NCBI GenBank assembly: GCA_965226245.1
Contig: CBDDCL010000015.1
Coordinates: 1,839,412-1,903,411 of the forward strand
Reading direction: 5' to 3'
Source of the DNA: Bryobacterales bacterium
Lineage (GTDB): Bacteria; Acidobacteriota; Terriglobia; Bryobacterales; UBA6623
DNA: 64,000 bases
In this document: one piece after another, positions 2,881 to 33,973 of the stretch
Position numbering within the stretch: the first letter of the stretch is position 1
Layout: each line of letters starts with the position of its first letter
The notes under the pieces: model-generated
Database searches by the model: none
What the model saw: the letters and a program-made list of their open reading frames with translations, nothing else
What the model was told of the DNA's origin: nothing
Program-made: the position numbers and the translations under genes

Positions 2881-2922
2881 GGGTTCGGTGAAAAGTGAGG
2901 ACTGTCAGAGTTGCTCGGTGAG

Positions 2923-11620: not shown

Positions 11621-11720
11621 AGCCTTTTGAGCCGCGAAGCGGCGCCGGATCGTAGCCCATGGGTGGAGCGAAGCGGAACCCTGGGTCCGAAACCCCTCGA
11701 GGGAGAAGCCCCGCAAGGGG
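11621..11720. repeat. R-family repeat copy R2
   Basis: Near-identical to R1 and R3. ISa copy 1 is inserted 9 bp after its last hairpin (CCCCGCAAGGGG). Confidence 0.8.
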
Positions 11721-12658
11721 TGCATACCACCTGAATTATGCACTGCGGGTACACCTGAGGAGGGCTGTGCCGCGAGGGACCATTGGGCGACCCCCGAAAA
11801 CATGGGGTAATAAGGTAGGCTGGCAAAGATTTCAGCTTCGCCAGCCAACCCCAAGGAGGTCACCCAAATGGTTACCAAGCGAAAACAGCATAGCTCCAAA
11901 AACCCCGCCAAACAAGGCCGCGGCGCGACGGCTCCGCAGCCCAATAAAATCGGGGCTTCCACGCCCTATCACTTCCGCGGCAAGAATCTGACTCCCTACG
12001 GCGGCCTGCTGCCGGTCGCCACCCTGCTCGAAAAACTCGGCTTCCAAGAGCTGCTGGAACAAACCCTCAGCGTCAAACGAATCACCCGTGTGATGAGCCT
12101 CTACCAGTTTGTGCTGGCCCTCGTGCTGGCCCTCGTGCTGGGCCTCTATGTCGGCTTTGCACGGCTCAACCAACTCCGCTTCATCGCGCGCGACCCCATC
12201 CTGACCGGCATCTTGCAAGTGACGCGGCTGCCGCCGCAATCCACGCTGTGGCGCTTTCTGGCCTCGCTGCATCTCAACGTGGCGCGGCAGATCCTGTCGA
12301 TGCAGCGCCAACTGCGCGAACGAGCCTGGGCGGCGGCCAACGTGCGGTTGACCACGGTGACGCTGGACACCGACACCACCGTGCACACCCTCTACGGCCA
12401 GCAGATGGGCGGGCGCAAGAGCTACAACCCCAAGAACAAGGGCAAGCGCAGCTACCAGCCGATACTGACCTTCCTGGCCGAGACGCGCGAATACCTGATG
12501 GGCGGGTTGCACAATGGCGACCGGCCCACGGGCAAAGAGATCGCGGCGCACCTCGAAAGTGCTTTCCAGGCTTTGCCGGCCAGTGTGAAGCGGATCTTGG
12601 CGCGGGCCGATTCCGGCTTTTATTGCTGGGAAGCGGTGGCAGCCTACGAACAAGCGCA

Positions 12659-13685: not shown

Positions 13686-15040
13686 CAAGCGCATTGTCAG
13701 TTCGTCATCGTGGCGCGCAAGACTAGGCGACTGGTCGAGCAGTTGCAGCAAGCGGAATGGAAGCCCTCGCCCCACAGCGACGCTGCGGCGGAGTGCGAAT
13801 TCCTCTACCAGCCGCAAGGCTGGGGCAGGGCCTGCCGCTTTGTCGCGCTGCGTTATGAAAAGGAGCCGGAAACCGACGAGGTCGAGCAATATCAGTTGTT
13901 TGCAACCAGCGCTTACACCTACCGCGTGTTCGTCACCAACCTCACCGAGCCGATCGCGGCGGTGGCGTGGTTTTACAACCAGCGGGCTGGGGCGGAGAAC
14001 CTCATCAAAGAAGCCAACAACGACGCCGGGCTGGCGGCCCATCCTTCGCGCCGCTTTGACATGAACCGCAATCACTTTCAGTTGGTCATGCTGGCCTACA
14101 ACCTCAACTGCTGGCTGCTGCTGTTCCAGCGCGAAGCCGACGCCACCCCGGAGAAGCTGCGCCACACCACCCTGGCGACGGCGCGGCTGCGCTTTCTGTT
14201 CGTGGCGGCCAAGATCTGGCGGCATGCCGGCAGAACGGGCATCAGCTACAGCGATCAGTACCAGGAGCAGGGCCTGTTCGAGCGGCTGATGCGGCGGCTG
14301 CGGGCGATGGCGCCGCCGGGATCGAGCTGCGCGCCGGTGGTGGAGGGTGCGCTGCGTTGAGGGGCGCTGCGCATAGAATTTTATGCACGGGCCGCAAGCT
14401 ACTGGGAACATGCCGTTTGCGAGCCCGCTTTTGCCCGCCCGGAATTGGGAGGCGGCTCAAACCGGGAAGGAAACAGCAGAAAAGACGACTTGCTAAATCA
14501 CTGAGTTGACACGACTGCCGCTACCGCCACAACTCCATCGGCGATGGCTACGCCGAACCTGTGCATAATTCAGGTACCATAGTCCTGCTGGCGGTCGCGG
14601 AACTCTTCGTGCCAGTTTTGGACGACGCAACGGAAAATACTTTCACCTCGCCTGCGCTTCAAGATTCCAAGCGCTAGATGAGAACGCCGCCACGGAGCGG
14701 AGCTACTTTCGAGTTCTGCCCCTGATAAACTCGATTGATGACGAAACCGTACTCGGAACGCGGGATCCGGCAACTGCGGTGGTCACACTTACAGTTCTAG
14801 TACTAACGGATCATACCAAATAAGTACAAATTGTCTATGGACAAAACGCCTTAGTCGCGGCCATTATACCCTAGAACGCTCTTTTTGAGACTATGCCGCC
14901 CGTAGGGGCGGGCGTCAGCGAAGAGTCCGAGGGATTGGACCCGCGGCGCAGGAGCACGAAAAAAACGGGCAAGGAAGCAAAACTTCGGCGAAGCCGTGTG
15001 GCTGCGGGCGCGACGGTCTGGCTGGCTGGGAGATCGTGGT

Positions 15041-15068: not shown

Positions 15069-15126
15069 ATGCGCAACCGACATCGGGAATTAAATGGATA
15101 CACCATTCCTTGTTTACTCTCTTACA

Positions 15127-16924
15127 CCTGAATTATGCACAGGTTCGGCGTAGCCATCGCCGATGGAGTTGTGGCGGTAGCGGCAGTCGTGTCAACTCAG
15201 TGATTTAGCAAGTCGTCTTTTCTGCTGTTTCCTTCCCGGTTTGAGCCGCCTCCCAATTCCGGGCGGGCAAAAGCGGGCTCGCAAACGGCATGTTCCCAGT
15301 AGCTTGCGGCCCGTGCATAAAATTCTATGCGCAGCGCCCCTCAACGCAGCGCACCCTCCACCACCGGCGCGCAGCTCGATCCCGGCGGCGCCATCGCCCG
15401 CAGCCGCCGCATCAGCCGCTCGAACAGGCCCTGCTCCTGGTACTGATCGCTGTAGCTGATGCCCGTTCTGCCGGCATGCCGCCAGATCTTGGCCGCCACG
15501 AACAGAAAGCGCAGCCGCGCCGTCGCCAGGGTGGTGTGGCGCAGCTTCTCCGGGGTGGCGTCGGCTTCGCGCTGGAACAGCAGCAGCCAGCAGTTGAGGT
15601 TGTAGGCCAGCATGACCAACTGAAAGTGATTGCGGTTCATGTCAAAGCGGCGCGAAGGATGGGCCGCCAGCCCGGCGTCGTTGTTGGCTTCTTTGATGAG
15701 GTTCTCCGCCCCAGCCCGCTGGTTGTAAAACCACGCCACCGCCGCGATCGGCTCGGTGAGGTTGGTGACGAACACGCGGTAGGTGTAAGCGCTGGTTGCA
15801 AACAACTGATATTGCTCGACTTCGTCGGTTTCCGGCTCCTTTTCATAACGCAGCGCGACAAAGCGGCAGGCCCTGCCCCAGCCTTGCGGCTGGTAGAGGA
15901 ATTCGCACTCCGCCGCAGCGTCGCTGTGGGGCGAGGGCTTCCATTCCGCTTGCTGCAACTGCTCGACCAGTCGCCTGGTCTTGCGCGCCACGATGACGAA
16001 CTGACAATGCGCTTGTTCGTAGGCTGCCACCGCTTCCCAGCAATAAAAGCCGGAATCGGCCCGCGCCAAGATCCGCTTCACACTGGCCGGCAAAGCCTGG
16101 AAAGCACTTTCGAGGTGCGCCGCGATCTCTTTGCCCGTGGGCCGGTCGCCATTGTGCAACCCGCCCATCAGGTATTCGCGCGTCTCGGCCAGGAAGGTCA
16201 GTATCGGCTGGTAGCTGCGCTTGCCCTTGTTCTTGGGGTTGTAGCTCTTGCGCCCGCCCATCTGCTGGCCGTAGAGGGTGTGCACGGTGGTGTCGGTGTC
16301 CAGCGTCACCGTGGTCAACCGCACGTTGGCCGCCGCCCAGGCTCGTTCGCGCAGTTGGCGCTGCATCGACAGGATCTGCCGCGCCACGTTGAGATGCAGC
16401 GAGGCCAGAAAGCGCCACAGCGTGGATTGCGGCGGCAGCCGCGTCACTTGCAAGATGCCGGTCAGGATGGGGTCGCGCGCGATGAAGCGGAGTTGGTTGA
16501 GCCGCGCAAAGCCGACATAGAAGCCCAGCACGAGGGCCAGCACAAACTGGTAGAGGCTCATCACACGGGTGATTCGTTTGACGCTGAGGGTTTGTTCCAG
16601 CAGCTCTTGGAAGCCGAGTTTTTCGAGCAGGGTGGCGACCGGCAGCAGGCCGCCGTAGGGAGTCAGATTCTTGCCGCGGAAGTGATAGGGCGTGGAAGCC
16701 CCGATTTTATTGGGCTGCGGAGCCGTCGCGCCGCGGCCTTGTTTGGCGGGGTTTTTGGAGCTATGCTGTTTTCGCTTGGTAACCATTTGGGTGACCTCCT
16801 TGGGGTTGGCTGGCGAAGCTGAAATCTTTGCCAGCCTACCTTATTACCCCATGTTTTCGGGGGTCGCCCAATGGTCCCTCGCGGCACAGCCCTCCTCAGG
16901 TGTACCCGCAGTGCATAATTCAGG
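15127..16924 (-). mobile_element. ISa copy 2 (1798 bp), intact
   Basis: Terminal CCTGAATTATGCAC inverted repeats. The 5-bp duplication TTACA is at 15122-15126 and 16925-16929. Inserted after codon 11 of the GT2 gene. Confidence 0.92.
15341..16786 (-). CDS. ISa transposase (IS1380-family-like DDE, 481 aa)
   Basis: VTLDTDTTVHTLYGQQ, ARADSGFYCWE and FYNQRAGAENLIKEANND (Y-x2-R-x3-E-x3-K) motifs. SD aaggagg before the ATG. Confidence 0.9.
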   Translation of the reverse strand: MVTKRKQHSSKNPAKQGRGATAPQPNKIGASTPYHFRGKNLTPYGGLLPVATLLEKLGFQELLEQTLSVKRITRVMSLYQFVLALVLGFYVGFARLNQLRFIARDPILTGILQVTRLPPQSTLWRFLASLHLNVARQILSMQRQLRERAWAAANVRLTTVTLDTDTTVHTLYGQQMGGRKSYNPKNKGKRSYQPILTFLAETREYLMGGLHNGDRPTGKEIAAHLESAFQALPASVKRILARADSGFYCWEAVAAYEQAHCQFVIVARKTRRLVEQLQQAEWKPSPHSDAAAECEFLYQPQGWGRACRFVALRYEKEPETDEVEQYQLFATSAYTYRVFVTNLTEPIAAVAWFYNQRAGAENLIKEANNDAGLAAHPSRRFDMNRNHFQLVMLAYNLNCWLLLFQREADATPEKLRHTTLATARLRFLFVAAKIWRHAGRTGISYSDQYQEQGLFERLMRRLRAMAPPGSSCAPVVEGALR

Positions 16925-17435
16925 TTACACTAGTCAAGTTCTTGCTAGTCGTAGTTAGTGTCGGTTTTTTTGCGCTCGGCGTCGACGATCTCTTGGTTGA
17001 CATCTGCTACGCAGTCCGGCGTTTGTATCGCCGGCTCTTCGTGGAGCGGCGATACAAATCACTCAGCGAAAGTGATCTCCTCGAAAAGAGCGAACAGCCT
17101 GTTGCCATTATGATTCCTACCTGGCAGGAGTCTGGCGTCATCCGGCAGATGCTAGAGAATACGCTGCGGACGGTAACTTACTCAGACTTTGAGATCTTCG
17201 TTGGCACGTACCAAAACGACGAAGAGACAGCAGCCGCGGTAGAGAAGGCCCGCGAGCAATCGCACCGCGTTCACCGAATTGTCTGTCCCAAGGACGGGCC
17301 AACCAGCAAAGCCGACTGCCTCAACTGGATCTATCAGGGGATCCGGTCCTTTGAGGCTCGCAACAGCGTCAAGTTCGCATTCTATGTCATGCATGACTCG
17401 GAGGATATCGTTCACCCGCTCTCGCTAAAGTTGTT

Positions 17436-18472
17436 GATGGGTATTCACTTGACTCAGGTATTTTGAAATGGCCCCTACATGTTGTGGTTGTCCGTAGCGC
17501 GTGTTGCGGTGCCTCCGACCAGCGACTTGTAGGGCGCCGGTTGGACGGCGACGGCCTGCTGAACCAGGCGGTAGAAGAGCTTGCCTCGGCTTCTGGACTT
17601 GCGGCGGTTGAAGCGGAAGGTGAATTCGTCGAGGTAGTAGTCGAGATGCTCGTGGCTGACGGCTCCTTGATGCGTACCCAGTATCCAACGCTTCAGTAAC
17701 GACACCACGCGATGCACGCGGGGGAGCAGTTGAGAGGCTCGTGCCGGTTGCCCGTCCAGGTAGCTCACCTCGTGGCGATAGCCGTCGCTTTCGAGTGGCT
17801 CGTATCCCAGCCAGCCGTCCGTGTGGACCACGCTGCCGGGTTCGACCGACTCGCCGACGAAGGCCATCAAGCTGTCCCCAGAGGCGTTCGGAATCGTGCG
17901 CATCCGAACTCGTCCGATGCCGGCGCCATCTTCCTCGGCCGCTACTACAATCAGCGCTTTCGCGTCGGTTTGGCGGCCCCGCACGCCCTCCTCCAGGGCT
18001 CCTAAGTAAGTCTCGTCAACCTCAACGCGCCCGCTGAGGCGATCACGTCCGGGCCGCACCATAGCGCGCCGAAGCTTGTGCAACCAAGTCCAGGCCGTCT
18101 TGTAGCTGCCCAGGCCCAACACCCGCTGCAATCCCAATGCACTCGCCCCGTTCTTCTGGCTGGTGAGCCACCACATTGCTCGAAACCAACTCTGGAGCGG
18201 CTTGCGGGTGTCTTGAAAGATTGTGCCTGCTGTCGCCGAAGCTTGATGCCCGCAGCTTGCACACTGCAGCAGCACCGTGCGCACCGCCCAGGTTTTGTCA
18301 TGCCCGCATCGCGGACAACGAAAACCCTCCGGCCAGCGGAGTTGACACAGATACTCCCGACAGGCCTGCTCGCTAGCGAAACGCGCCTCGAACTCGGCCA
18401 AATTCCGGGGATAATCTTCCATCGCCCAAGATCCTACATCTTGGGGTCACCTGAGTCAAGTAAATACCCATC
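17436..18472 (-). mobile_element. ISb2 (diverged IS1595/ISXO2-like relative of ISb, 1037 bp)
   Basis: Ends gatgggtattcacttgactcaggt / acctgagtcaagtaaatacccatc. The 8-bp duplication AAGTTGTT is at 17428-17435 and 18473-18480. Confidence 0.88.
17475..18422 (-). CDS. IS1595-family (ISXO2-like) transposase, 315 aa
   Basis: MEDYPRNLAEFEARF..., CPRCG...CASCG, VEVDETYLGA, VVHTDGWLGY. Clearly homologous to, but distinct from, the ISb protein. Confidence 0.9.
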   Translation of the reverse strand: MEDYPRNLAEFEARFASEQACREYLCQLRWPEGFRCPRCGHDKTWAVRTVLLQCASCGHQASATAGTIFQDTRKPLQSWFRAMWWLTSQKNGASALGLQRVLGLGSYKTAWTWLHKLRRAMVRPGRDRLSGRVEVDETYLGALEEGVRGRQTDAKALIVVAAEEDGAGIGRVRMRTIPNASGDSLMAFVGESVEPGSVVHTDGWLGYEPLESDGYRHEVSYLDGQPARASQLLPRVHRVVSLLKRWILGTHQGAVSHEHLDYYLDEFTFRFNRRKSRSRGKLFYRLVQQAVAVQPAPYKSLVGGTATRATDNHNM

Positions 18473-18596
18473 AAGTTGTTTAACTACCTCATGCCCAGAA
18501 TGGGGATGGTACAACTCCCGGTACTTCCTCTGCAGACTCGGCTGCGGGACTTCACGAGTGGTCACTATATCGACGAGTTTTGTGAGTTTCATTCCA

Positions 18597-20396
18597 CCTG
18601 AATTATGCACAGGTTCGGCGTAGCCATCGCCGATGGAGTTGTGGCGGTAGCGGCAGTCGTGTCAACTCAGTGATTTAGCAAGTCGTCTTTTCCGCGGTTT
18701 CCCTCCCGGTTTGAGCCGCCTCCCAATCCGGGCGGGCAAAAGCGGGCTCGCAAACGGCATGTTCCCAGTAGCTTGCAGCAAGTGCATAAAATTTTATGCA
18801 TGGAGCACCTCTCAACGCAGCGCACCCTCCACCACCGGCGCGCAGCTCGATCCCGGCGGCGCCATCGCCCGCAGCCGCCGCATCAGCCGCTCGAACAGGC
18901 CCTGCTCCTGGTACTGATCGCTGTAGCTGATGCCCGTTCTGCCGGCGTGCCGCCAGATCTTGGCCGCCACGAACAGAAAGCGCAGCCGCGCCGTCGCCAG
19001 GGTGGTGTGCCGCAGCTTCTCCGGGGTGGCGTCGGCTTCACGCTGGAACAGCAGCAGCCAGCAGTTGAGGTTGTAGGCCAGCATGACCAACTGAAAGTGA
19101 TTGCGGTTGGTGTCAAAGCGGCGCGAAGGATGGGCCGCCAGCCCGGCATCGTTGTTGGCCTCCTTGATCAGGTTTTCCGCCCCGGCCCGCTGATTGTAAA
19201 ACCACACCACCGCCGCGATCGGCTCGGCCAGGTTGGTCACAAACACGCGGTAGGTGTAAGCGCTGGTTGCAAACAACTGATATTGCTCGACCTCCTCGGT
19301 TTCCGGCTCCTTTTCATAACGCAGCGCGACAAAGCGGCAAGCCCTGCCCCAGCCTTGCGGCTGGCAGAGGAATTCGCACTCCGCCGCAGCGTCGCTGTGG
19401 GGCGAGGGCTTCCATTCCGCTTGCTGCAACTGCTCGACCAGTCGCCTGGTCTTGCGCGCCACGATGACGAACTGACAATGCGCTTGTTCGTAGGCTGCCA
19501 CCGCTTCCCAGCAATAAAAGCCGGAATCGGCCCGCGCCAAGATCCGCTTCACACTGGCCGGCAAAGCCTGGAAAGCACTTTCGAGGTGCGCCGCGATCTC
19601 TTTGCCCGTGGGCCGGTCGCCATTGTGCAACCCGCCCATCAGGTATTCGCGCGTCTCGGCCAGGAAGGTCAGTATCGGCTGGTAGCTGCGCTTGCCCTTG
19701 TTCTTGGGGTTGTAGCTCTTGCGCCCGCCCATCTGCTGGCCGTAGAGGGTGTGCACGGTGGTGTCGGTGTCCAGCGTCACCGTGGTCAACCGCACGTTGG
19801 CCGCCGCCCAGGCTCGTTCGCGCAGTTGGCGCTGCATCGACAGGATCTGCCGCGCCACGTTGAGATGCAGCGAGGCCAGAAAGCGCCACAGCGTGGATTG
19901 CGGCGGCAGCCGCGTCACTTGCAAGATGCCGGTCAGGATGGGGTCGCGCGCGATGAAGCGGAGTTGGTTGAGCCGCGCAAAGCCGACATAGAGGCCCAGC
20001 ACGAGGGCCAGCACAAACTGGTAGAGGCTCATCACACGGGTGATTCGTTTGACGCTGAGGGTTTGTTCCAGCAGCTCTTGGAAGCCGAGTTTTTCGAGCA
20101 GGGTGGCGACCGGCAGCAGGCCGCCGTAGGGAGTCAGATTCTTGCCGCGGAAGTGATAGGGCGTGGAAGCCCCGATTTTATTGGGCTGCGGAGCCGTCGC
20201 GCCGCGGCCTTGTTTGGCGGGGTTTTTGGAGCTATGCTGTTTTCGCTTGGTAACCATTTGGGTGACCTCCTTGGGGTTGGCTGGCGAAGCTGAAATCTTT
20301 GCCAGCCTACCTTATTACCCCATGTTTTCGGGGGTCGCCCAATGGTCCCTCGCAGCTCAGCCCTCCTCAGGTGCACCCCGCAGTGCATAATTCAGG
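18597..20396 (-). mobile_element. ISa copy 3 (1800-bp sequence variant), intact
   Basis: Same terminal repeats. The 5-bp duplication TTCCA is at 18592-18596 and 20397-20401. It differs from the 1798-bp variant mainly in the transposase 3' third and both subterminal regions. Confidence 0.92.
18812..20257 (-). CDS. ISa transposase (variant allele, 481 aa)
   Basis: Full-length ORF with a few substitutions relative to the other copies (e.g. FLCQPQ, PETEEVEQ, NLAEPIAAVVW, RFDTNRN). Confidence 0.9.
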   Translation of the reverse strand: MVTKRKQHSSKNPAKQGRGATAPQPNKIGASTPYHFRGKNLTPYGGLLPVATLLEKLGFQELLEQTLSVKRITRVMSLYQFVLALVLGLYVGFARLNQLRFIARDPILTGILQVTRLPPQSTLWRFLASLHLNVARQILSMQRQLRERAWAAANVRLTTVTLDTDTTVHTLYGQQMGGRKSYNPKNKGKRSYQPILTFLAETREYLMGGLHNGDRPTGKEIAAHLESAFQALPASVKRILARADSGFYCWEAVAAYEQAHCQFVIVARKTRRLVEQLQQAEWKPSPHSDAAAECEFLCQPQGWGRACRFVALRYEKEPETEEVEQYQLFATSAYTYRVFVTNLAEPIAAVVWFYNQRAGAENLIKEANNDAGLAAHPSRRFDTNRNHFQLVMLAYNLNCWLLLFQREADATPEKLRHTTLATARLRFLFVAAKIWRHAGRTGISYSDQYQEQGLFERLMRRLRAMAPPGSSCAPVVEGALR

Positions 20397-21210
20397 TTCC
20401 AAGAACCTCGTGGTGCGCGAGTTTCTCAGTCACACCATGCCCTGTGCGGGTGTTGGGTGCGCTTTTAGCCGTGAGGTGTTTGAGACATTCGTCGAGGCGG
20501 ATCCAGACAATTTGTTCAACGTCGAGTCGTTGACAGAGGACTATGAGTTTGGACTGCGCCTCCGGGACTATAGCTGGAAAGCGATCTTTGTGAATAAGGC
20601 CCTGAAACGAACCGTTGTCGAAACAGATCCAAATTCCGGCGAAGAACGGCGGTCGAAGGTCTCCGATTACGTCGCTACAAGGGAGTTGTTCCCTAACAAA
20701 CTTTCCGCGGCGGTCCGTCAAAAATCCCGCTGGGTGATTGGCATTGCCCTGCAAGGCTGGCGGAATTTGGGTTGGAGAGGTACGTGGGCCGCGCGCTATG
20801 CGTTTCTGCAGGACAGGAAGTGTCTATTAGGAAATCACCTGAACATGGCGGGATACGCTCCGCTGGGCTGTCTGCTGTTGCTGTGGATCCCAACCGTAGT
20901 CGATCCCGGGCGGTACAGTTTTCCCGTCCTGGTCACGACTGGCTCCTGGCTATGGTATATCCTCTGGGTCGATCTAGTATTTCTGCTGAATCGGCTTGTT
21001 CACCGCTCGTTTTTCGTCTGGCGGATCTACGGCTGGAAGCAGGGCCTGTGCTCCATTCCAAGGGCCATCTGGGGCAATGTAATTAACTTTCTTGCGGTCG
21101 TTCGGGCTGTATATCTCTACGGGCGCTATCTACTCACCAGAAAACCCATCGGTTGGGACAAGACCGGACATGTTTTCCCGTCCGCACTGACCTTTAGCAA
21201 AACTTACGGG

Positions 21211-21369
21211 CGTTTGGGCGATTTGTTACTCGAACAGCGGTCCATCACAGTAGACCACCTGCTGGCTGCCTTACAGGTACAGCGGCAACGTCGGCTGCCT
21301 TTGGGATTGATTCTAAAAGATCTTAGGTACGTCGAGGAGCGCCATCTGCAGCGCGCACTCACCCGCCAA
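21211..21369 (+). other. Tandem MshEN-type c-di-GMP-binding motifs in the GT2 C-terminal domain
   Basis: RLGDLLLEQRSITVDHLLAALQVQ followed by LPLGLILKDLRYVEERHLQRALTRQ, compared with the published MshEN consensus RLGxx(L/V/I)(L/V/I)xxG(L/V/I/F)(L/V/I)xxxxLxxxLxxQ. The first-motif Gly is replaced by Arg. Confidence 0.6.
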
Positions 21370-23612
21370 ATTGAAAGTGCAACCCCATTGCCTCCGCCAA
21401 AGCGGCTCGTTTCGGATCTTTTGCGGAAACTGCCTCGCGATATGGCTTCCTCTTGCTCCGCGATTCCGGTAGACGAAGATCAGGAAGGGCGGGTCGTCAT
21501 CGCCACGAGCGAGATCTTGAGCCGGGAAAAAATCGAGGCTCTTCAAGCCCGCTTTGACAAGCCCATAAGGATTCAGCTGGCAGAGCGCAAAGAAGTGGGA
21601 TTGCTGATCGAGCGGGCCTACGGCTCGTGAAGTGAAACGTCAGCTCGGGAGATGCCGGTCAGCTAAATAACAACTCTTGGTAACGACTCGCCCAAACCGA
21701 ACTTTGGAAGGCATGACTTGTATGCAACGACCCAGCTATAAACCGCCTTCGATCCTTATTCTGACCGTAGCGTTGTTGGGGGCGTGTCAACTATGGGCGC
21801 CCCGGGCTGGAGCAGCCCCGGACCCCAACGTCGCCAAGACCGCCGAGCGTGGCTGGATCTCGAGAGAATACCATCGTATACGTAACCACCTTGTTCTCAG
21901 CGAGACCCATCGGCTCGTGGCGTCGCCATGGTGCGCGGTGAACTCGAAAATGCCCGCCACAAGCTGGAAACTCACCTCCGTGACCAGCCTCGAGATATAC
22001 CGGCAAGGCGCCAATACCTTACCGTGCTTGACCGTTTGGGGCTTCACCCGAAAGTCATACAAGAAGCGACGCTTCTCATCGACCAAGACCCCGAGTTTCG
22101 CGATGCCAGGCTCTACCGCGCGGGGGCCTACCAAGCGGTCGGTAGGATCCGAGAAGCGGTGTCCGACTTTCAAGCAGTGGGCATTGACCAAGCAAACGAG
22201 CAGGCAGACCGGATCTACGCGCTGAATATGGCCGCGGACCTGGCCCTCGGTCAGCAACTTTACAGCGAGGCGCTGGATTCGCTAGCGCATCTGGCAGCAT
22301 TCTCGCAAACTTATGCTGTCTACTTTCGCAGGGGTTTGGCGCTGGAGGGGGCGGGCCGGGTGTCCTCGGCGACGGAGGCTTACAAGCTCGCTCTCGAGCG
22401 GGCGAGCACGGATGAGGAGCGGCTCGGCGCCCTCCGTGGGCTAGGTGGGACGGCCCGAAAAAGCGGGGATTCGGGCGCGGCGTACAAGGTGTTTTCCAAA
22501 GCCCACCAACTAAGGTCCGACGATGTGTTCGTGCTGCGCAGCTTGGCTGAGATCACTCGTTCGCAGAAGCAATTTCGGGAAACTGCAGGGTGGGCCCGGC
22601 AGGTTCTTGCCATTACCCAGGACCCAAGTGATAGAGAGTTCCTTGCAAGTGTCCTTTACCAGAGCAAGGACTACTCAGGAGCAGCCAGAGAGTATTCAAT
22701 CCTGAAGGCGGATGTTGATCCGCCGCGGAGAGTGCGAGCTTACCGCGCTCTGGCGAATATTGCTGGCCGGCAGGGTAATTTCTCTTCCGAAAAACGCCAT
22801 CTGATGTCAGCGCTGAGTCTAGACTCCCGGAATGCTGAGGTGCTCCGGGCGCTGGCCCACAACAGCTCTAAACAAAGAGACTACGAGGCTAGCGTCAATT
22901 GGATAAAAAAGGCGAGGGCCGCCCAGCCCAAGTTGGAAGACCACATCCTTCTAGCCAACGGGTTGATCGAGCTTGGCCGGTTTCAGGACGCCGTTAAACA
23001 GTGGACCATCGTGCTTTCCGGGCTAAAGGTTCCCCGGAACAGACATCCAATCTTGGTGTCGTTGGGTCACACCCACACTCTGGCGGGTGATCAGGCCTCC
23101 GCTACAGCAGCTTTTCGTGAAGCTGCTCGCATTCGTCCGGACGTGCTCACCCTAACAGCCCTCGCACACTCTCTGGAAGCAGCACAGTCTTTGAGTGAAG
23201 CGATTGAGATTTGGGAAGCTGTGCTCGAGCAAAGTCCATCCCCGGAAACGCACTACAGATTAGGAGTACTCTTCGCCCAAGCCGGCGAAGATCTCCAGGC
23301 TCTCAACCATTTATCCAAGGCGGCACAGAACGGTCTATCAATAGAGCTGAAGGCTTCGGCATATAAGCAACTGGGTTACCTCTACCAGAAATCCGGCCAG
23401 CTGAGGCAAGCTCTTTCGGCCTTCGAAAAGGCGGTTACTCGGGACGAGAAAGATTCCGTGCTCTACCTGGCGCTGGGCAACTTATCCATGCAGATGCATG
23501 AGTACGGGAAAGCGATCCACTACTTTCAGCTCGGCCTCGCAATCGAGCACACACCAGAGCTTATTCGAGGGCTAACTGTGGCTGAGGTTCAGGCGTCAGG
23601 CGAACTGTTGCA

Positions 23613-25410
23613 CCTGAATTATGCACTGCGGGTACACCTGAGGAGGGCTGTGCCGCGAGGGACCATTGGGCGACCCCCGAAAACATGGGGTAATAAGGTA
23701 GGCTGGCAAAGATTTCAGCTTCGCCAGCCAACCCCAAGGAGGTCACCCAAATGGTTACCAAGCGAAAACAGCATAGCTCCAAAAACCCCGCCAAACAAGG
23801 CCGCGGCGCGACGGCTCCGCAGCCCAATAAAATCGGGGCTTCCACGCCCTATCACTTCCGCGGCAAGAATCTGACTCCCTACGGCGGCCTGCTGCCGGTC
23901 GCCACCCTGCTCGAAAAACTCGGCTTCCAAGAGCTGCTGGAACAAACCCTCAGCGTCAAACGAATCACCCGTGTGATGAGCCTCTACCAGTTTGTGCTGG
24001 CCCTCGTGCTGGGCCTCTATGTCGGCTTTGCGCGGCTCAACCAACTCCGCTTCATCGCGCGCGACCCCATCCTGACCGGCATCTTGCAAGTGACGCGGCT
24101 GCCGCCGCAATCCACGCTGTGGCGCTTTCTGGCCTCGCTGCATCTCAACGTGGCGCGGCAGATCCTGTCGATGCAGCGCCAACTGCGCGAACGAGCCTGG
24201 GCGGCGGCCAACGTGCGGTTGACCACGGTGACGCTGGACACCGACACCACCGTGCACACCCTCTACGGCCAGCAGATGGGCGGGCGCAAGAGCTACAACC
24301 CCAAGAACAAGGGCAAGCGCAGCTACCAGCCGATACTGACCTTCCTGGCCGAGACGCGCGAATACCTGATGGGCGGGTTGCACAATGGCGACCGGCCCAC
24401 GGGCAAAGAGATCGCGGCGCACCTCGAAAGTGCTTTCCAGGCTTTGCCGGCCAGTGTGAAGCGGATCTTGGCGCGGGCCGATTCCGGCTTTTATTGCTGG
24501 GAAGCGGTGGCAGCCTACGAACAAGCGCATTGTCAGTTCGTCATCGTGGCGCGCAAGACCAGGCGACTGGTCGAGCAGTTGCAGCAAGCGGAATGGAAGC
24601 CCTCGCCCCACAGCGACGCTGCGGCGGAGTGCGAATTCCTCTACCAGCCGCAAGGCTGGGGCAGGGCCTGCCGCTTTGTCGCGCTGCGTTATGAAAAGGA
24701 GCCGGAAACCGACGAAGTCGAGCAATATCAGTTGTTTGCAACCAGCGCTTACACCTACCGCGTGTTCGTCACCAACCTCACCGAGCCGATCGCGGCGGTG
24801 GCGTGGTTTTACAACCAGCGGGCTGGGGCGGAGAACCTCATCAAAGAAGCCAACAACGACGCCGGGCTGGCGGCCCATCCTTCGCGCCGCTTTGACATGA
24901 ACCGCAATCACTTTCAGTTGGTCATGCTGGCCTACAACCTCAACTGCTGGCTGCTGCTGTTCCAGCGCGAAGCCGACGCCACCCCGGAGAAGCTGCGCCA
25001 CACCACCCTGGCGACGGCGCGGCTGCGCTTTCTGTTCGTGGCGGCCAAGATCTGGCGGCATGCCGGCAGAACGGGCATCAGCTACAGCGATCAGTACCAG
25101 GAGCAGGGCCTGTTCGAGCGGCTGATGCGGCGGCTGCGGGCGATGGCGCCGCCGGGATCGAGCTGCGCGCCGGTGGTGGAGGGTGCGCTGCGTTGAGGGG
25201 CGCTGCGCATAGAATTTTATGCACGGGCCGCAAGCTACTGGGAACATGCCGTTTGCGAGCCCGCTTTTGCCCGCCCGGAATTGGGAGGCGGCTCAAACCG
25301 GGAAGGAAACAGCAGAAAAGACGACTTGCTAAATCACTGAGTTGACACGACTGCCGCTACCGCCACAACTCCATCGGCGATGGCTACGCCGAACCTGTGC
25401 ATAATTCAGG
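23613..25410 (+). mobile_element. ISa copy 4 (1798 bp), intact
   Basis: Terminal repeats as above. The 5-bp duplication TTGCA is at 23608-23612 and 25411-25415. Confidence 0.92.
23751..25196 (+). CDS. ISa transposase (481 aa)
   Basis: Differs from the 15341-16786 copy by a single residue (GLYVG here versus GFYVG there); the 34112-35557 protein as listed is identical. Confidence 0.9.
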   Translation: MVTKRKQHSSKNPAKQGRGATAPQPNKIGASTPYHFRGKNLTPYGGLLPVATLLEKLGFQELLEQTLSVKRITRVMSLYQFVLALVLGLYVGFARLNQLRFIARDPILTGILQVTRLPPQSTLWRFLASLHLNVARQILSMQRQLRERAWAAANVRLTTVTLDTDTTVHTLYGQQMGGRKSYNPKNKGKRSYQPILTFLAETREYLMGGLHNGDRPTGKEIAAHLESAFQALPASVKRILARADSGFYCWEAVAAYEQAHCQFVIVARKTRRLVEQLQQAEWKPSPHSDAAAECEFLYQPQGWGRACRFVALRYEKEPETDEVEQYQLFATSAYTYRVFVTNLTEPIAAVAWFYNQRAGAENLIKEANNDAGLAAHPSRRFDMNRNHFQLVMLAYNLNCWLLLFQREADATPEKLRHTTLATARLRFLFVAAKIWRHAGRTGISYSDQYQEQGLFERLMRRLRAMAPPGSSCAPVVEGALR

Positions 25411-27679
25411 TTGCAAGACGCAGATTCGCATACGAAACCGGCACTACTCAAGCAGGCAGCCGAGCGATTTCTGGCTGCATATGAAGAGTCCGATGACGCT
25501 GATCTCCTAGCGCAGACCGCTCAAGCCTACTACCTCGCTGGAGACTGGCCGGAAGCGAGCAAGACTTACGAGCGACTGATGGCGCTGCCTGGCTTAGCCC
25601 AAAATACTCTGGGACTGGCTTTGGAGAACTTGGGGTTCATTGCGCTCCGTGAAGGCCGATCAGACCAGGCGGTTGATTTTCTGAGCCAGGCGATCAAACA
25701 GGGAGGTGCCGGTTCCCGCTTGAGGCAGAACTTAGGGCTTGCTCTCTATTCTGAGCGACGTTGGCGCGAAGCCCTGGAGCAGTTTCATGCCGCCTCCGAG
25801 GAGAAGAAGGACTCCCAGGTGCTGATTTACGTGGCGCGGTGTTACAAGGAATTGAATAAGCCTGGCCTAGCCATTAAGTTCTTCAGAGAGGCACTTGCCA
25901 TTGGGAAAAGTATGCAGCCTTCCGAGCGACGCGAAGTCCTCAGCGAGCTGGGCTACCTCTACGCCGGTCAGCCAGACTACGCCGAGGCGGCGTCGGCTTG
26001 GCGTCAGGTCCTTGTCCTCAAAGAAGAACCGGCAGTCCGCATTCGGCTGGCTCGGGTGGAGCGGCTGGCTTCGGAGATCGAGAACGCGCAGACAACACTG
26101 GAGACGATCGAGGTTGGGTCCCTGCCTTCGGAGCTTATTGCTGAATACTTCGAGGAACGCGCGGAGCTAGCCTACGCCGGAGGTCAAACCGCCCAAGCGG
26201 TGGAGCACTTGGAATCATCGGCCTCCCTAGCTCCCGAACCTGGACGCTTGCTCCGGCTGGGACTTCTATACGACGAAATCGACGAGATTGACAGGTCGAT
26301 CGAGGTCCTCGAGAACGCTCGACAACTCGACCCTCAAAGCACTCGTATCGCTGAAGCTCTAGGTTATGCCTACGCCCGGCGGGATGAACTGGACCGGGCT
26401 ACCGAAGTCTTCGAAGAGGTCGCCGATCGGGATCCGCACAACTCCAATGTGACTCGGGATCTGGCCTACCTCCTCATGAAACATGGCAGAAACGAGCAGG
26501 CCCGAACTTGGTTCCGCCACTCAATTGATTATCAGCCGCAGCCCCCTGAAGCAACTCGGGATCTGCATCCCGACGAAATCGAGGAGAACTTCCGCGTCAG
26601 GAAAGAGATCTCAAAACTGGGCAATCGCGTCGACCTGATTCCCTATTTTTCGTACTCTTCGGCTGATCGCAGTCAGCCGGCGGCTTTCGCCGCAGTGGGC
26701 GGGACGGCGATCCCGTCCCAAGGCGGTGTCGAACTGGCTTACACCCCGCGGCGCTTTGGTCTGCGCAACGACCGCGTCTTCCAAGTCTTCGGACGCGTGC
26801 TAGGGAACCTCCAACCGGCTTCTCTCAGTATGGACAACGAGAGTTACCAGGGAGGAATCGGCGCCCGCTACAAGCCGCTTCCGACACAGAATTTGTACTT
26901 CTCCGGAGAGCGGCTGTTTAAGATCGGCTCGAATTCCTTCAACACTTGGTTCCTGCGCAGTCATTATTCTTGGGCGAGCGAGTACGGGGTGAAGCCGCTG
27001 CGAAAAGCCTGGAACCACACCATGTTCTACGGCGACATCGGCTACTTGACCTCTCCTGATCTGTTCACGATGTACGGAGAAGCACGACAGGGCGTCACTT
27101 TTCGTTTCGGCGATGGCTTCCTCGTGACACCTCACGCGCTGGTGGCTGGCCGGAACTACAATCCGAACAGAAATGTCAGCTCGTATCTTGAAGGCGGTGC
27201 TGGTGTCGCATTCAAAGTGTTGTACAACGACAGTCTCTACGACGTACATCGTTCCGGATTCGAGGTGGCGGTACAATACCGCTGGGGAATCATATCCGCG
27301 CTGGCGCCGCTCTTGAATCAGCCGAGGTTCGGCGGGCTCGTGATCAGTACAATGCTTCAGTTTTGAGGGAAACTTTTGGTGTCGACGATTTACTCTCGCA
27401 GTAGAATTCTACTAGTGGCAGCTTTGGCCCTTGTCGCCGCCGGAAGGTCGCGTGAACTTCCGCCATCCGTTCTAATTCAAGGAACCTTTTTGCAGTTGTG
27501 GGACGATCATGCCCAATGGAGCGATTCCCAGTGGGACAAGCTGTTTGGATACTTCGAAGAGTTGCAAATGAGGACCCTGGTGGTCCAGTGGACGGTCTAC
27601 GACTCGACGGCGTTCTATGAATCGGATCAGTTCGAGGCAGTCGGAACGCTGCCAGTTGAGGGAATCCTGAAAAGAGCCG

Positions 27680-28706
27680 ATGGGGTATTTAGTTGACTCC
27701 AGTAGCCACTACATCTTGGGGGTGGGGGTGCCGGCCCTGGTGGCCTCGACCATTGTCTTATAGGGAGCAGGGTCGGCGGCGACCGCCTGCTGGAGGAGGC
27801 GATAGAAAAGTTTGCCGCGCGACCGTGAGGTCCGCCGGTTGAAGCGGAACGTGAACTCGTCCAGGTAGTAGTCCAAATACTCGTGACTGACAGCCCCCTG
27901 GTGGGTCCCCAACAGCCAGCGCTTTAGCAGAGAGGCGACACGATGGACTCTCGGCAGCAGCTTACTCGCCGATTGCCGCTTCCCGCGCAGCACGGTGACT
28001 TCATGGCGGTATCCTTTGTTCTCCAATCCCGCATAGCCTTCCCAGCCGTCGGTGTGCACGAGGCTGCCAGGTTGGATAGCTTCTTCGACAAAGGCTTCCA
28101 AGCTCGCCGCTGAGGCATCCGCGATCCGACGGAGCCGGATGCGACCCATACCGCGCCCATCCTCCTCGGCAGCAACCGCAACTAACGCTTTGCCAACCAT
28201 TTCGCGACCTCGGACGCCCTCTTCGACTCCGCCCACATACGTTTCGTCCACCTCCACCCGGCCGACCAGCCGATTGCGACCGGGGCGCACCATGGCGCGG
28301 CGGAACTTGTGCAGCCAGGTCCAGGCGGTTACATAGCTACCCAAACCCAAGACCCGCTGCAACTCCAGCGCGCTGGCCCCGCCTTTTTGCGTTGTCACCC
28401 ACCAAGCCGCCCGGAACCACAACGTCAAGGGCTTGCGGGTGTCCTGGAAAATCGTGCCCGCCGTCACCGAGGCCTGGTAACCGCAGTCGGCGCAGAGCAG
28501 CAGATTGCGTTTGCTGGCCCATGAGGACTGGATCCCACAGCGCGGGCACACGAACCCCTCCGGCCAGCGCAGCTTCAGCAGGTACTCCCGGCACGCCTCC
28601 TCGGTCGAGAATCGAGCTTCCAACTCGACGAGGTTTCGGGGGTAGTCCTCCTTCATGCCCCCAACCACAACATATTGTGGCTACTGGAGTCAACTAAATA
28701 CCCCAT
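27680..28706 (-). mobile_element. ISb copy 2 (1027 bp); identical encoded transposase, so apparently identical to copy 1
   Basis: Same ends as copy 1. AAGAGCCG is at 27672-27679 and 28708-28715, with one extra T (28707) between the IS end and the right copy. Confidence 0.9.
27709..28656 (-). CDS. IS1595-family (ISXO2-like) transposase
   Basis: The protein is identical to the 12709-13656 copy. Confidence 0.9.
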   Translation of the reverse strand: MKEDYPRNLVELEARFSTEEACREYLLKLRWPEGFVCPRCGIQSSWASKRNLLLCADCGYQASVTAGTIFQDTRKPLTLWFRAAWWVTTQKGGASALELQRVLGLGSYVTAWTWLHKFRRAMVRPGRNRLVGRVEVDETYVGGVEEGVRGREMVGKALVAVAAEEDGRGMGRIRLRRIADASAASLEAFVEEAIQPGSLVHTDGWEGYAGLENKGYRHEVTVLRGKRQSASKLLPRVHRVASLLKRWLLGTHQGAVSHEYLDYYLDEFTFRFNRRTSRSRGKLFYRLLQQAVAADPAPYKTMVEATRAGTPTPKM

Positions 28707-29649
28707 TAAGAGCCGAACAGGCCGGGATAAAAGTGTGGCTGGGTCTTGCTAACGACAGTTCTTACTGGAATCGGATCGGCGCTGACCGCTCGTTTCTGGA
28801 AACTTACCTGCGTAACCTTCGCAATCGATCCGCACTCGTCGCGGCCGAGCTCCTCCCAATCGCAGCCCGCTATGACTCTTTCGCAGGCTGGTACATCCCT
28901 ACCGAGATCGATGACGTTAACTGGCGAACGCGTGAAGCCGCAGGGTCGCTGAACCGCTTTGTTTCCGGTCTAAGTAGGGATTTGAGGCGCATTACACCCG
29001 ATGCCGGGATTGCGATCTCCGGGTTTTCGAACGCTTATCTGGACCCGAGAGGTTTCGAGCGATTCTGGACTAAACTGATGACGGAGGCCAAGCTGGACAT
29101 CGTGCTATTCCAAGACGGCGTCGGCGCGGGGAAACTCCTTCCGCGGGAGCTTGGTTTCTACATTCAAGCGATCCAGCGTTCCTCAAAGCAGTCGGGCTGC
29201 CGGCTGGTCGTTGTTCTGGAACTTTTTGAACAGATCCCAGGCGATTCCGGATTCGATGCCCGACCGGCCCCTTTCGAGAGGATCATTGATCAACTCAACC
29301 AAGTCAGACAGACCGGCGTCACTGAGATATTCGCCTTCAGCGTTCCAGAATACTTGACACCGCTGGGTGGTCCGGAAGCTGAAAAGAACTATCGGGATTA
29401 CCGCCGCCTACTGTCTCCACGGGGCCCCAGGGAGTAGTATCTCCCTCCGATACTATTTTGCGGGTTTCGCGCTGCGTTTCCGGCCAGAACACCCAAGCTG
29501 GGAGGCGGCTTCGAGCCTGCTGTTTCGGGTCACGAACCGGGTATCGTTGACCTTCAATTATTTACGAAGAAATTACAGTCTGCTGACCCGCGACGGTTGG
29601 TATCAAGGGGCTTATGTCGGACTTCAGATCGAACCATAAAAGGGGTACC

Positions 29650-30743
29650 ATGCACTTTCTCATTACGGGCGGCGCGGGTTTTATCGGCTCTCATCTCGCG
29701 GAAAGGCTCATGCGGGAGCATGGGACGGTTACCTCCTCGACAATTTGAGCACGGGTTCGCTGGCCAACCTCGAACAACTCTTTGATCAGCCCGGTTTTGA
29801 GTTTGTGGAAGGCAATATTCTCGACGAGAGGCTGGTTCACCGTCTGGTGGAGCGCTGCGACGTGGTCGTCCACCTGGCGGCCGTGGTGGGCGTGCGTTAC
29901 GTGCTTACGCACCCTCTTGAAACCCTTCAAGCCAACGTGAGCGGCACGGCGAACGTTCTTGAAGCGGCACGGCGATCTCGAACGAAAGTGCTCATTGCGA
30001 GCAGTTCCGAAGTATACGGCAAGAACGAATCCAAACTGCTCTGTGAAACCGCCGACTCGGTGCTGGGCCCCTCATCGATGGGTCGCTGGGCGTATGCCAC
30101 CACAAAGAAGATGGATGAGTTCATGGCTATCGCGTACGCCTCCCATTACGGTGTTCCGGCGGTGATTACCCGATTTTTCAACGTTGCCGGCCCCCGGCAG
30201 AACGGCCGCTACGGTATGGTACTGCCCTGTTTCGTGCGGGCGGCGCTCGCGGGAACCCCGATTCGTGTTTTTGGGGACGGCAGACAAACCCGCAATTTCA
30301 GCTTTATCAGCGACGTCATCGATGCCCTCTGCGGGCTGCTGGAATGTAAAGAAGCGGAAGGCGAAATCTTTAACATTGGTGGAACGGAAGAGATCTCGAT
30401 ACGGAAACTCGCCGAGCTAGTAAAGGCCACGGCGGGATCGCGGAGCCCGATCATCACGGTCCCCTATCACCAAGCCTATCCCGAAACGGGATTTGAAGAC
30501 ATGCGACGCAGAGTACCTTGCCTTTGTAAGATCCGGCAACTGACCGGCTGGCAGTCCGTTACGCCAGTGCAGCAGATGATCCGCGAAACGCTCGCCTGGG
30601 AGCTGAGAACGACGCTGCTGCAATGCGAGCGGGAAGGAAGCCGCCAGGATGACGGGGCAGACGACAGATATCGCCCGGCGTTGGGCCGTACCCAACCACC
30701 ACGGCAGATTTCCGGCCCCGGCTTGACACACCCCTTACAATGA
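29650..30743 (+). pseudogene. NAD-dependent epimerase/dehydratase (UDP-sugar epimerase/decarboxylase-like) with a frameshift after about 25 codons
   Basis: ATG 29650 gives MHFLITGGAGFIGSHLAERLMREHG..., then stops at 29746-29748. The expected continuation (Y)LLDNLSTGSLANLEQL... is in frame 3 (ORF 29745-30743). The C-terminal tail is encoded by repeat D1. Confidence 0.7.
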
Positions 30744-33971: not shown

Positions 33972-33973
33972 CA

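Follow-up and report, generated by a model that had tools for sequence, protein, structure and literature searches.

A probable Nfr-type exopolysaccharide locus in an uncultured Bryobacterales bacterium, multiply inactivated by insertion sequences

We analysed a 64-kb stretch of DNA (the window) from the ~7.1 Mb genome of an uncultured member of the Bryobacterales (Acidobacteriota), which contains an operon related to E. coli nfrB-nfrA-ybcH. The genes are interrupted by five insertion sequences (IS1 to IS5), and removing these in silico, each with one copy of its target-site duplication (TSD), yields open frames for the synthase, NfrA-like and DUF4434 genes, subject to one exception described below. 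All coordinates given in an initial sequence-only reading of the locus were correct on re-check. The features, in window positions, are as follows.

11730-14574, minus strand: upstream IS1380-family copy, TSD TACCA, overlooked in the sequence-only reading
12659-13685: IS1595-family copy nested in the upstream IS1380-family copy, TSD CAAGCGCA
14838-14867, plus strand: sigma-70-like promoter match TGGACA-18-CATTAT, a candidate native operon promoter (weak consensus match only)
15094-15126, plus strand: GT2 synthase fragment 1, codons 1-11 (reconstruction, profile matches)
15127-16924, minus strand: IS1, IS1380-family, 1798 bp, TSD TTACA (15122-15126 / 16925-16929), transposase at 15341-16786 (minus), inserted at synthase codon 11
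16930-17435, plus strand: GT2 synthase fragment 2, with the DxD motif region (D167) (reconstruction, residue alignment)
17436-18472, minus strand: IS2, IS1595-family, TSD AAGTTGTT, 315-aa transposase at 17475-18422 (minus)
18481-18596, plus strand: GT2 synthase fragment 3 (reconstruction)
18597-20396, minus strand: IS3, IS1380-family variant, TSD TTCCA, transposase at 18812-20257 (minus)
20402-21630, plus strand: GT2 synthase fragment 4, with TED and QxxRW motifs, transmembrane region and MshEN (motifs, profiles)
21722-21924, plus strand: NfrA-like N-terminus, 68 codons, with signal peptide and possible lipobox (LLGAC)
21925-21935, plus strand: 11-bp insertion GCCATGGTGCG, causing a frameshift in nfrA and confined to the window lineage
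21936-23612, plus strand: NfrA-like TPR region, first part (profile matches)
23613-25410, plus strand: IS4, IS1380-family, TSD TTGCA, transposase at 23751-25196 (plus)
25416-27366, plus strand: NfrA-like remaining TPR repeats and NfrA_C beta-barrel, C-terminal Phe (profiles)
27376-27679, plus strand: YbcH-like DUF4434 fragment 1, TTG start, hydrophobic N-terminal segment (profile)
27680-28707, minus strand: IS5, IS1595-family, TSD AAGAGCCG, 319-aa transposase at 27709-28668 (minus)
28716-29437, plus strand: YbcH-like DUF4434 fragment 2 (profile)
29650-30743, plus strand: SDR NAD-dependent sugar epimerase/dehydratase, co-oriented with the operon

Joining the four synthase fragments (15094-15126 + 16930-17435 + 18481-18596 + 20402-21630) gave 1884 nt encoding 627 aa with 0 internal stops, and the DUF4434 join (27376-27679 + 28716-29437) was open over 341 aa. 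The claim that IS excision restores all frames holds for these two genes but fails for nfrA, where the 11-bp insertion, missed previously, is also present. It shifts the frame after residue 68, so that the signal-peptide ORF (from 21722) is cut off from an ORF starting at 21928. From that ATG, the join of sequence up to 23612 with 25416-27366 is open, as proposed, and ends in ...MLQF; the full-length 1276-aa protein requires removal of the 11-bp insertion besides IS4. Taken with its two flanking bases, this insertion matches an internal segment of IS1595 over 13 nt. The locus had been described as multiply inactivated, and it indeed carries five ISs and two small indels, the second being a -1 frameshift near 29733 that makes the downstream SDR gene a pseudogene in every haplotype.

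Searches of the reconstructed proteins for GT2, MshEN, TPR, NfrA_C and DUF4434 were all positive. The synthase matched Pfam Glyco_tranf_2_3 (E 1e-38) and MshEN (E 7e-10), exceeded the cut-off of the NCBIfam c-di-GMP motif domain, had an NfrB-type glycosyltransferase as its top named NCBIfam match, and was 36% identical to E. coli K-12 NfrB over 610 aa (BLASTP, E 9e-127). As in E. coli NfrB, it has DxD, TED and QxxRW motifs and a C-terminal MshEN with both 24-residue c-di-GMP-binding motifs, which lie in tandem in fragment 4 (L490/G491, L538). It also keeps 6/6 E. coli NfrB residues (D169/D267/W330 and L490/G491/L537) at which mutation abolishes function (PMC8669469). At 627 aa as against 745, it is without the C-terminal ~130 residues of E. 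coli NfrB; such short forms (~630 aa) are frequent in other genomes. The second protein has TPR repeats, NfrA_C (66 bits vs cut-off 25) and a terminal Phe, as E. coli NfrA does; its top named NCBIfam match was the NfrA 'phage receptor' and it is 22% identical to E. coli K-12 NfrA (E 6e-18), although longer (1276 vs 990 aa) and possibly a lipoprotein. Weak similarity to BcsC TPRs was also seen. The third, which like E. coli YbcH combines DUF4434 (Pfam E 1e-53) with a hydrophobic N-terminus, had YbcH-type DUF4434 as its top named NCBIfam match and is 31% identical to E. coli K-12 YbcH (E 5.5e-22). Because none of the three reaches the strict equivalog cut-offs that NCBI sets for the E. coli proteins (563 vs 1170 for NfrB, 98 vs 1223 for NfrA, 118 vs 344 for YbcH), they are, as judged from sequence, family members and not orthologue-level equivalents of NfrB, NfrA and YbcH. 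At that level, the proposed likeness to nfrB-nfrA-ybcH is borne out by family matches, BLASTP and gene order alike.

In E. coli K-12, NfrB-NfrA-YbcH is the N4 glycan receptor / Nfr exopolysaccharide system (Junkermeier & Hengge 2021, PMC8669469; Sellner et al. 2021, PMC8669472), with the same three families in the same order as in the window. By homology to these proteins we infer c-di-GMP binding, a polymer and its export: in the intact form, a processive inner-membrane GT2 would polymerise a sugar nucleotide once c-di-GMP binds the C-terminal MshEN, a membrane-anchored periplasmic YbcH-like DUF4434 protein would assist, and the NfrA-like TPR and beta-barrel outer-membrane protein would export the product. 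The pairing of a c-di-GMP-activated inner-membrane GT2 with a TPR/beta-barrel exporter recalls cellulose BcsA/BcsC, PNAG PgaC/PgaA and alginate Alg8/AlgK-AlgE. Unlike in those systems, the Nfr sensor is MshEN instead of PilZ or an inter-subunit site, and only the Nfr type has the NfrA_C barrel and the DUF4434 partner.

The inserted elements belong to two families, whose transposases score above NCBIfam equivalog cut-offs (249 vs 180 bits for IS1380, 203-205 vs 75 for IS1595). The three IS1380 copies in the operon have a 14-bp inverted repeat (CCTGAATTATGCAC) and 5-bp TSDs, with a possible TWNCA target preference of this element type (n=5), and the two IS1595 copies have terminal inverted repeats and 8-bp TSDs. 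IS3 is 98% identical to IS1, and IS4 is 100% identical to IS1 over 1800 nt in inverted orientation. Such repeats can confuse assemblers, so we considered whether IS copies had been misplaced by the long-read assembler, or unrelated fragments joined in frame by chance. This is highly improbable and effectively refuted, as every insert comes with a TSD of its own, four independent assemblies share the insertions in nested subsets, naturally occurring alleles with empty sites align collinearly with the reconstruction, and each joined protein matches one family over its whole length. In addition, short-read Logan contigs of run ERR14231557 have ends that coincide precisely with the termini of IS4 and IS5, backing the IS4 junction (L094) and both IS5 junctions (L084 and L094).

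Four long-read haplotypes were compared: the window, L001 (ERZ21829562), L083 and ctg125699. For the relatives, a search for the uninterrupted allele was only partly successful. The near-identical L001 contig has precise empty sites, with a single TSD copy each, for IS2, IS3, IS4 and IS5, and the IS2 and IS3 sites are also empty in L083, but IS1 occupies the same site in 4/4 haplotypes and is for this reason considered the oldest lesion. No intact operon allele was found in a 15-billion-protein collection or in JGI metagenome scans. Only the window and ctg125699 have IS2 and IS3, and the 188-aa and 415-aa fragments each occur on 2 contigs; the stretch left unsequenced between the two ctg125699 loci measures 4007 bp, the same as the window distance. 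These two haplotypes also have in common the upstream IS nest (11730-14574), ~520 bp upstream of the operon, which is missing from L001; the fetched L083 locus begins at window position 15080, with the nest site outside its coverage. Among these long-read haplotypes, IS4, IS5 and the 11-bp insertion are private to the window. L083 has its own IS1595 copy in nfrA (window position 26138), L001 its own 108-bp stop-bearing insertion in the synthase, and the ctg125699 SDR gene is also split by an IS1380 copy. Since flanking DNA differs by only ~0.1% between haplotypes, the later insertions are taken to be recent.

We consider it likely that the locus is the remains of an Nfr-type synthase-dependent exopolysaccharide system that was knocked out once and then degraded stepwise. 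First, an IS1380-family element would have entered synthase codon 11 and the SDR gene gained its -1 frameshift, both seen in all haplotypes. Second, IS2, IS3 and the upstream nest would have been gained in an ancestor shared by the window and ctg125699. Third, the window lineage alone would have acquired IS4, IS5 and the nfrA frameshift, with the L083 and L001 lineages gaining their own lesions. After the first knockout, the operon may have been a selectively neutral landing pad amid ongoing IS1380/IS1595 expansion, which would explain the pile-up of ISs there while adjacent housekeeping genes are intact. Consistent with this, 13.7% of the window's sequence outside ISs has received 5/8 of the insertions that hit host DNA (binomial P = 0.002), although for insertions since the split from an L001-like haplotype (4/5 clustered, P = 0.054) the enrichment is only marginal.

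Alternatively, the loss may have been selected repeatedly: IS1 would not have inactivated the operon, as translation restarting at a GTG within the IS terminus could give a 626-aa synthase, and lineages would then have inactivated the system independently because the glycan was costly or a phage receptor. N4-type phages use the Nfr surface glycan as their receptor in E. coli. Such a 626-aa hybrid ORF, open across the IS1 junction, was called in L083, and three lineages have different second-site lesions in the 6.85-kb operon (IS2/IS3, the IS1595 copy at 26138 and the 108-bp insertion) despite so little background divergence. However, the gene-facing IS1 end has no plus-strand promoter-like site, no purine-rich ribosome-binding site precedes the GTG, and the IS1 transposase is directed away from the gene, unlike the promoter-out arrangement of ISEcp1. 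The adjoining epimerase, frameshifted in all haplotypes, suggests early dispensability of the locus. From neutral decay following a single knockout one would expect the same lesion pattern as from selected loss. A parallel in favour of selected loss comes from E. coli B strains, in which nfrB/dgcJ likewise carry IS elements, deletions or stops (PMC8669472); in contrast, here five ISs of two families and two small indels lie in one operon, and the haplotypes form a nested series in a soil metagenome population, not a laboratory strain. Overall, we regard repeated selected loss as unlikely.

The synthase is encoded in at least 588 species genomes, and among 80 inspected related loci (L002-L081) the order GT2, NfrA_C, DUF4434 is kept in at least 28, across many phyla. 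The suggestion that the system was undescribed in such a lineage stands for the searchable literature but not for sequence databases, in which it is common in Acidobacteriota, with apparently intact cassettes in Bryobacteraceae (L011) and other Acidobacteriota (L004, L035). A WecB-type UDP-GlcNAc 2-epimerase flanks the synthase at 59/80 loci, usually directly upstream. Compared with wecB-nfrB-nfrA-DUF4434 cassettes of Pseudomonas, Nitrosomonas, Geobacter, Desulfovibrio, Verrucomicrobiota and Acidobacteriota, the window has the same synthase architecture and downstream NfrA_C and DUF4434 genes but an SDR epimerase instead of wecB. No WecB homologue was found in the 64-kb window, leaving a ManNAc-based glycan, as initially proposed, without local support. 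The SDR gene has no counterpart at any of the 80 loci and is possibly a lineage-specific accessory. The locus further differs from E. coli Nfr in its acidobacterial host, in the inactivation of every known copy, and in that a non-systematic look noticed no dedicated GGDEF gene in the window.

The missing wecB could also indicate a horizontally acquired island, never integrated into host physiology and now being purged. The operon genes have 54-58% GC (neighbours 61-63%), their closest non-self homologues are only ~50% identical, and at the place where the operon would sit, a sister genome (ctg125696, with 90% nucleotide identity across isoamylase-MalQ) carries genes unrelated to it (Hpt, response-regulator GGDEF). 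The GC gap is modest, however, and absence from one sister genome could equally reflect deletion. We give this origin a small chance; it is in any case compatible with stepwise decay after a single knockout, not opposed to it.

The Nfr system is disabled in every sampled genome, and IS1 alone may already abolish expression. As the operon type is already known and widespread, this is no new system, and the locus is of interest as a neat case of gene decay.

Repeat finding together with junction reading placed five insertion sequences, of two groups, in the operon region 15094-29437, numbered here IS1 to IS5 along the operon. These, the other copies in the window and the gene downstream of the operon are as follows (TSD, target-site duplication):

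11730-14574: upstream nest (sixth and seventh IS copies), an IS1380-type copy with an IS1595-type copy nested inside, about 520 bp upstream of the operon
15127-16924: IS1, IS1380 type, TSD TTACA
17436-18472: IS2, IS1595 type, TSD AAGTTGTT
18597-20396: IS3, IS1380 type, TSD TTCCA
23613-25410: IS4, IS1380 type, TSD TTGCA
27680-28707: IS5, IS1595 type, TSD AAGAGCCG
29650-30743: SDR NAD-dependent sugar epimerase/dehydratase, downstream of and co-oriented with the operon, -1 frameshift near 29733
33974 and 43322 (starts): two further IS1380-type copies

The IS1380 family is defined by a DDE transposase of IS1380 type, terminal inverted repeats, a 4-5 bp TSD and a length of about 1.7-1.8 kb. The three operon copies of this group (1798-1800 bp) end in a 14-bp terminal inverted repeat, CCTGAATTATGCAC; the 1798-bp element encodes a 481-aa DDE transposase matching PF13701 and NF033539 (249-251 bits against a cut-off of 180), and a 5-bp TSD flanks five of the six copies. 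IS1, IS4 and the copy at 33974 are mutually 100% identical. For the IS1595 family (a transposase with Zn-ribbon and DDE_Tnp_IS1595 domains, a length of about 1 kb and an 8-bp TSD), the copies, about 1.03 kb each in the operon and 1027-1037 bp overall, match PF12760, PF12762 and NF033547 (203-205 bits, cut-off 75) and have 8-bp TSDs.

Excising each element plus one TSD copy, as the sequence-only reading had proposed, reproduced three open frames. The GT2 synthase becomes a 1884-nt frame encoding 627 aa, a natural short architecture, as homologs of about 630 aa are common, and the DUF4434 protein becomes one of 341 aa. Removing the insertion sequences is sufficient for these two genes but not for nfrA, from which an 11-bp insertion (GCCATGGTGCG, 21925-21935), present in the window and in none of the other haplotypes, must be removed as well. 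With only the IS copies excised, the NfrA-like frame is open from 21928 to 27366 and ends in ...MLQF, and the 11 bp cut the signal peptide (ATG at 21722, MQRPSYKPPSILILTVALLGAC...) off from the remaining protein. Once 21722-21924, 21936-23612 and 25416-27366 are joined, the protein has 1276 aa and differs by one substitution from that of L001, a nearly identical contig described below. After excision the synthase, outer-membrane exporter and DUF4434 genes are adjacent and co-oriented, with gaps of 91 nt (synthase to ATG 21722) and 9 nt (nfrA to the DUF4434 gene).

Searches with the reconstructed proteins matched every predicted family (GT2 and MshEN, TPR and NfrA_C, DUF4434). An NfrB-type synthase is a processive GT2 with DxD, TED and QxxRW motifs and a C-terminal MshEN module of two tandem 24-residue c-di-GMP-binding motifs. 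In Pfam, the reconstructed synthase matched Glyco_tranf_2_3 (E 9.5e-39) and MshEN (39 bits against a cut-off of 23), and it passed the c-di-GMP_motif domain model NF053729 at residues 489-541 (40.8 bits against 38). Its D167 (in DSED), T263-E264-D265 and Q325-x-x-R328-W329 align with D169, TED265-267 and QxxRW326-330 of E. coli NfrB (EcNfrB), and L490, G491 and L538 align with EcNfrB L490, G491 and L537. Mutating EcNfrB D169, D267, W330, L490, G491 or L537 abolishes function (PMC8669469), and all six of these mutationally validated residues are conserved. BLASTP against E. coli K-12 NfrB gave 36% identity over 610 aa (E 9e-127). The NCBIfam NfrB model NF008411 scored below its cut-off (563 against 1170 bits) while the related model NF012033 (PRK15489) was passed (597 against 537 bits), so the protein is a family member and not an E. 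coli-level equivalog. Together, domains and aligned residues support an NfrB-type synthase that is predicted to be activated by c-di-GMP.

The partner proteins behave similarly. The NfrA-like protein carries TPR repeats (many TPR families match in Pfam), a C-terminal NfrA_C beta-barrel (66 bits against a cut-off of 25), a terminal aromatic residue and a signal peptide, the last seen only after removal of the 11 bp or in L001. It matches E. coli K-12 NfrA by BLASTP (E 6e-18), and the "phage receptor" model NF007302 aligned to residues 765-1252 with a score of 98 against an equivalog cut-off of 1223. The DUF4434 protein covers positions 1-279 of the 283 in PF14488 (E 1.3e-53), has an N-terminal hydrophobic anchor segment (ILLVAALALVAAG), is 31% identical to E. 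coli K-12 YbcH (E 5.5e-22) and reaches 118 bits with NF007404, under the equivalog cut-off of 344. The proposed likeness to the E. coli Nfr system thus holds for family, gene order and key residues, but not at the level of equivalog scores.

The order GT2, NfrA_C, DUF4434, the same as E. coli nfrB-nfrA-ybcH, recurs in at least 28 of the 80 related synthase loci that we fetched from other genomes, and both partner genes occur in 32 of the 80. Loci with partners belong to Acidobacteriota, Bryobacteraceae, Desulfobacterota, Nitrosomonas, Geobacter, Methylobacter, Verrucomicrobiota, Omnitrophota and Rokuibacteriota. For the synthase family, databases list more than 5000 relatives, many of them labelled "adsorption protein B/NfrB", and the family is found in at least 588 species-level genomes. 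A published survey found homologs mostly in gamma- and betaproteobacteria and left out disrupted operons (PMC8669469), and no paper in the searchable literature combines NfrB with Acidobacteria. The extension to this lineage is therefore new to the literature, as the sequence-only reading had supposed, but not to the databases, where Acidobacteria and Bryobacteraceae MAGs already carry the NfrB label.

The Nfr system is supplied with UDP-ManNAc by WecB/NfrC, either operon-linked or encoded elsewhere (PMC8669469). In agreement with Junkermeier & Hengge (PMC8669469), a WecB homolog lies in the flank of 59/80 related loci, usually immediately upstream of the synthase, whereas tblastn with E. coli WecB found none in the 64-kb window. 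The window's SDR epimerase has a counterpart in 0/80 of these loci, and all haplotypes share its -1 frameshift, as does a short-read contig (L084). Another contig encodes a 398-aa relative that lacks the frameshift (P0170).

The GC content of the operon genes (GT2 54.0%, DUF4434 55.5%, nfrA 57.5%) and of the epimerase (58.4%) is lower than that of the flanking genes (60.6-62.7%); the window as a whole has 60% GC, and all named relatives of its NAD synthase are Bryobacterales, Solibacterales or Bryobacteraceae. An exact look-up of the 487-aa nucleoside hydrolase ORF found no record. The nearest non-self synthase homologs are only about 50% identical (48% for the closest among the 80 fetched loci). 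A sister genome from the same sample (ctg125696 of ERZ28763718, 7.23 Mb) is 90% identical over isoamylase-MalQ and lacks the locus altogether, so it offers no ancestral allele. Its similarity to the window stops at about 11413, and Hpt and response-regulator GGDEF genes (L090 14411-17000) take the place of the window's IS nest and nfr operon. Composition, absence from the sister genome and distant homologs together hint at horizontal acquisition.

Empty sites that independently prove the excisions came from near-identical contigs. A synthase search returned one 99%-identical protein, on L001 (ERZ21829562:ctg257534l, 973 kb), which aligns collinearly with the window (99.8-100% identity) and lacks IS2, IS3, IS4, IS5 and the upstream nest, with a single TSD copy at each site. 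A second contig (ctg85801, L083/L088) has IS1, an otherwise intact 626-aa synthase and an IS1595 copy at another nfrA site (window 26138-26145). A third (ctg125699, L085 and L087, 7.19 Mb) has the nest, IS1, IS2 and IS3 with intact NfrA (1276 aa) and DUF4434 (303 aa) proteins, and its own IS1380 copy splits the downstream epimerase; the unsequenced gap between its two loci is 4007 bp, exactly the spacing in the window. Two contigs are on record for the 188-aa synthase fragment and likewise two for the 415-aa one. Logan short-read contigs (run ERR14231557) span window 25383-27705, ending at the IS4 and IS5 termini, and a further contig of that run begins inside the right end of IS5. IS1 is common to all four haplotypes; the protein cluster (from 15 billion sequences; members of 487, 626, 415, 188 and 57 aa) holds no IS1-free synthase allele, and the reconstructed IS1 empty site had no match in two exact-match scans of JGI metagenomes.

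The four haplotypes are about 0.1% apart, yet the number of IS copies in the operon ranges from one to five. Their shared and private lesions are nested, which fixes the order of events: IS1 and the epimerase frameshift are the oldest, followed by the nest, IS2 and IS3 and finally by IS4, IS5 and the 11 bp, while L001 and L083 each acquired separate private lesions. IS1, at synthase codon 11, would have been the inactivating event, after which the dead operon would have collected further copies neutrally while the IS1380 and IS1595 elements were actively expanding. The IS1 transposase is directed away from the synthase gene, and no outward promoter was found in the IS1 end facing it. Alternatively, the shared IS1 may have left a working, N-terminally altered synthase, and at least three lineages of a wild soil acidobacterial population would then have lost the c-di-GMP-gated surface glycan independently under phage or cost pressure, with knockouts by IS1595, by IS1380 or by templated insertion. 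E. coli B strains offer a precedent for an IS-disrupted nfrB (PMC8669472), but we consider such adaptive loss improbable here. Insertions cluster in the operon relative to a uniform null (five of eight in 13.7% of the non-IS DNA, P = 0.002), marginally so for those gained since an L001-like state (P = 0.054), and purifying selection on neighboring genes would give the same clustering. An Rfam scan of the entire window, including the upstream region for a c-di-GMP riboswitch, gave no matches.

Two small insertions match IS1595-internal DNA. First, the 11 bp in nfrA plus two flanking bases form a 13-nt exact match (CGCCATGGTGCGC) to the IS1595 interior (13068-13080 and 28284-28296); the chance expectation for an exact 11-mer match anywhere in the window is about 0.03, and the insertion may be templated "filler" DNA. 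Second, a 108-bp insertion at L001 11456-11563 (near window 21204) splits its synthase into 487 + 138 aa and combines 71 bp from the IS1595 interior (window 13414-13491, reverse strand), again inserted without IS ends, with a 37-bp direct target duplication, although this may be an assembly error. As a side hypothesis, the 11-bp and 71-bp copies could reflect templated-insertion repair using IS DNA as filler.

There were further observations on the mobile elements. A transposase look-up, aimed at the IS copy number across the genome, yielded a single place. The clean IS1380 TSDs (TACCA, 11725-11729; TTACA, 15122-15126; TTCCA, 18592-18596; TTGCA, 23608-23612; TAACA, 33969-33973) suggest a TWNCA target preference. 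The variant copy at 43322-45066 is shorter (1745 bp) with unmatched flanks (TTGTA versus TTGAT), which suggests internal deletion and/or recombination between IS1380 copies. The ctg125699 contig departs from the window exactly there and carries a gene for an rve-type integrase in its place. An ORF of 506-510 aa lies antisense to each IS1380 transposase (15290-16822 and 18773-20293, + strand; 23715-25247 and 34076-35608, - strand). The 510-aa + strand ORF of IS1 was rejected as the transposase, as it has no Pfam match and the real transposase is the opposite-strand 481-aa ORF; these antisense ORFs are probably a high-GC artefact and could misdirect annotation. An intergenic repeat family of about 100 nt (2918-3017, 11618-11717 and 42001-42100; 89-98% identity) has no Rfam match; its copy at 11618, 12 bp away from the IS1380 insertion at 11730, has no significant fold (z = 0.01).

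Overall, the data bear out what the sequence-only reading observed and, with the corrections given above, support its interpretation. The locus is a pseudogenised member of a known, widespread system; its decay series across the population is neat but unsurprising, and it reveals no new mechanism. Gene callers break the operon into "proteins" of 188, 415, 648, 595, 68 and 234 aa, making it an instructive case for annotating pseudogenes and IS copies in long-read MAGs and a warning that being reconstructable does not make an operon functional. The haplotypes record, as a clean natural time series, how two IS families dismantle an operon, and the related loci show that Nfr-type cassettes under c-di-GMP/MshEN control reach far past the Proteobacteria surveyed in the literature, into Acidobacteriota, Verrucomicrobiota, Omnitrophota and other phyla.
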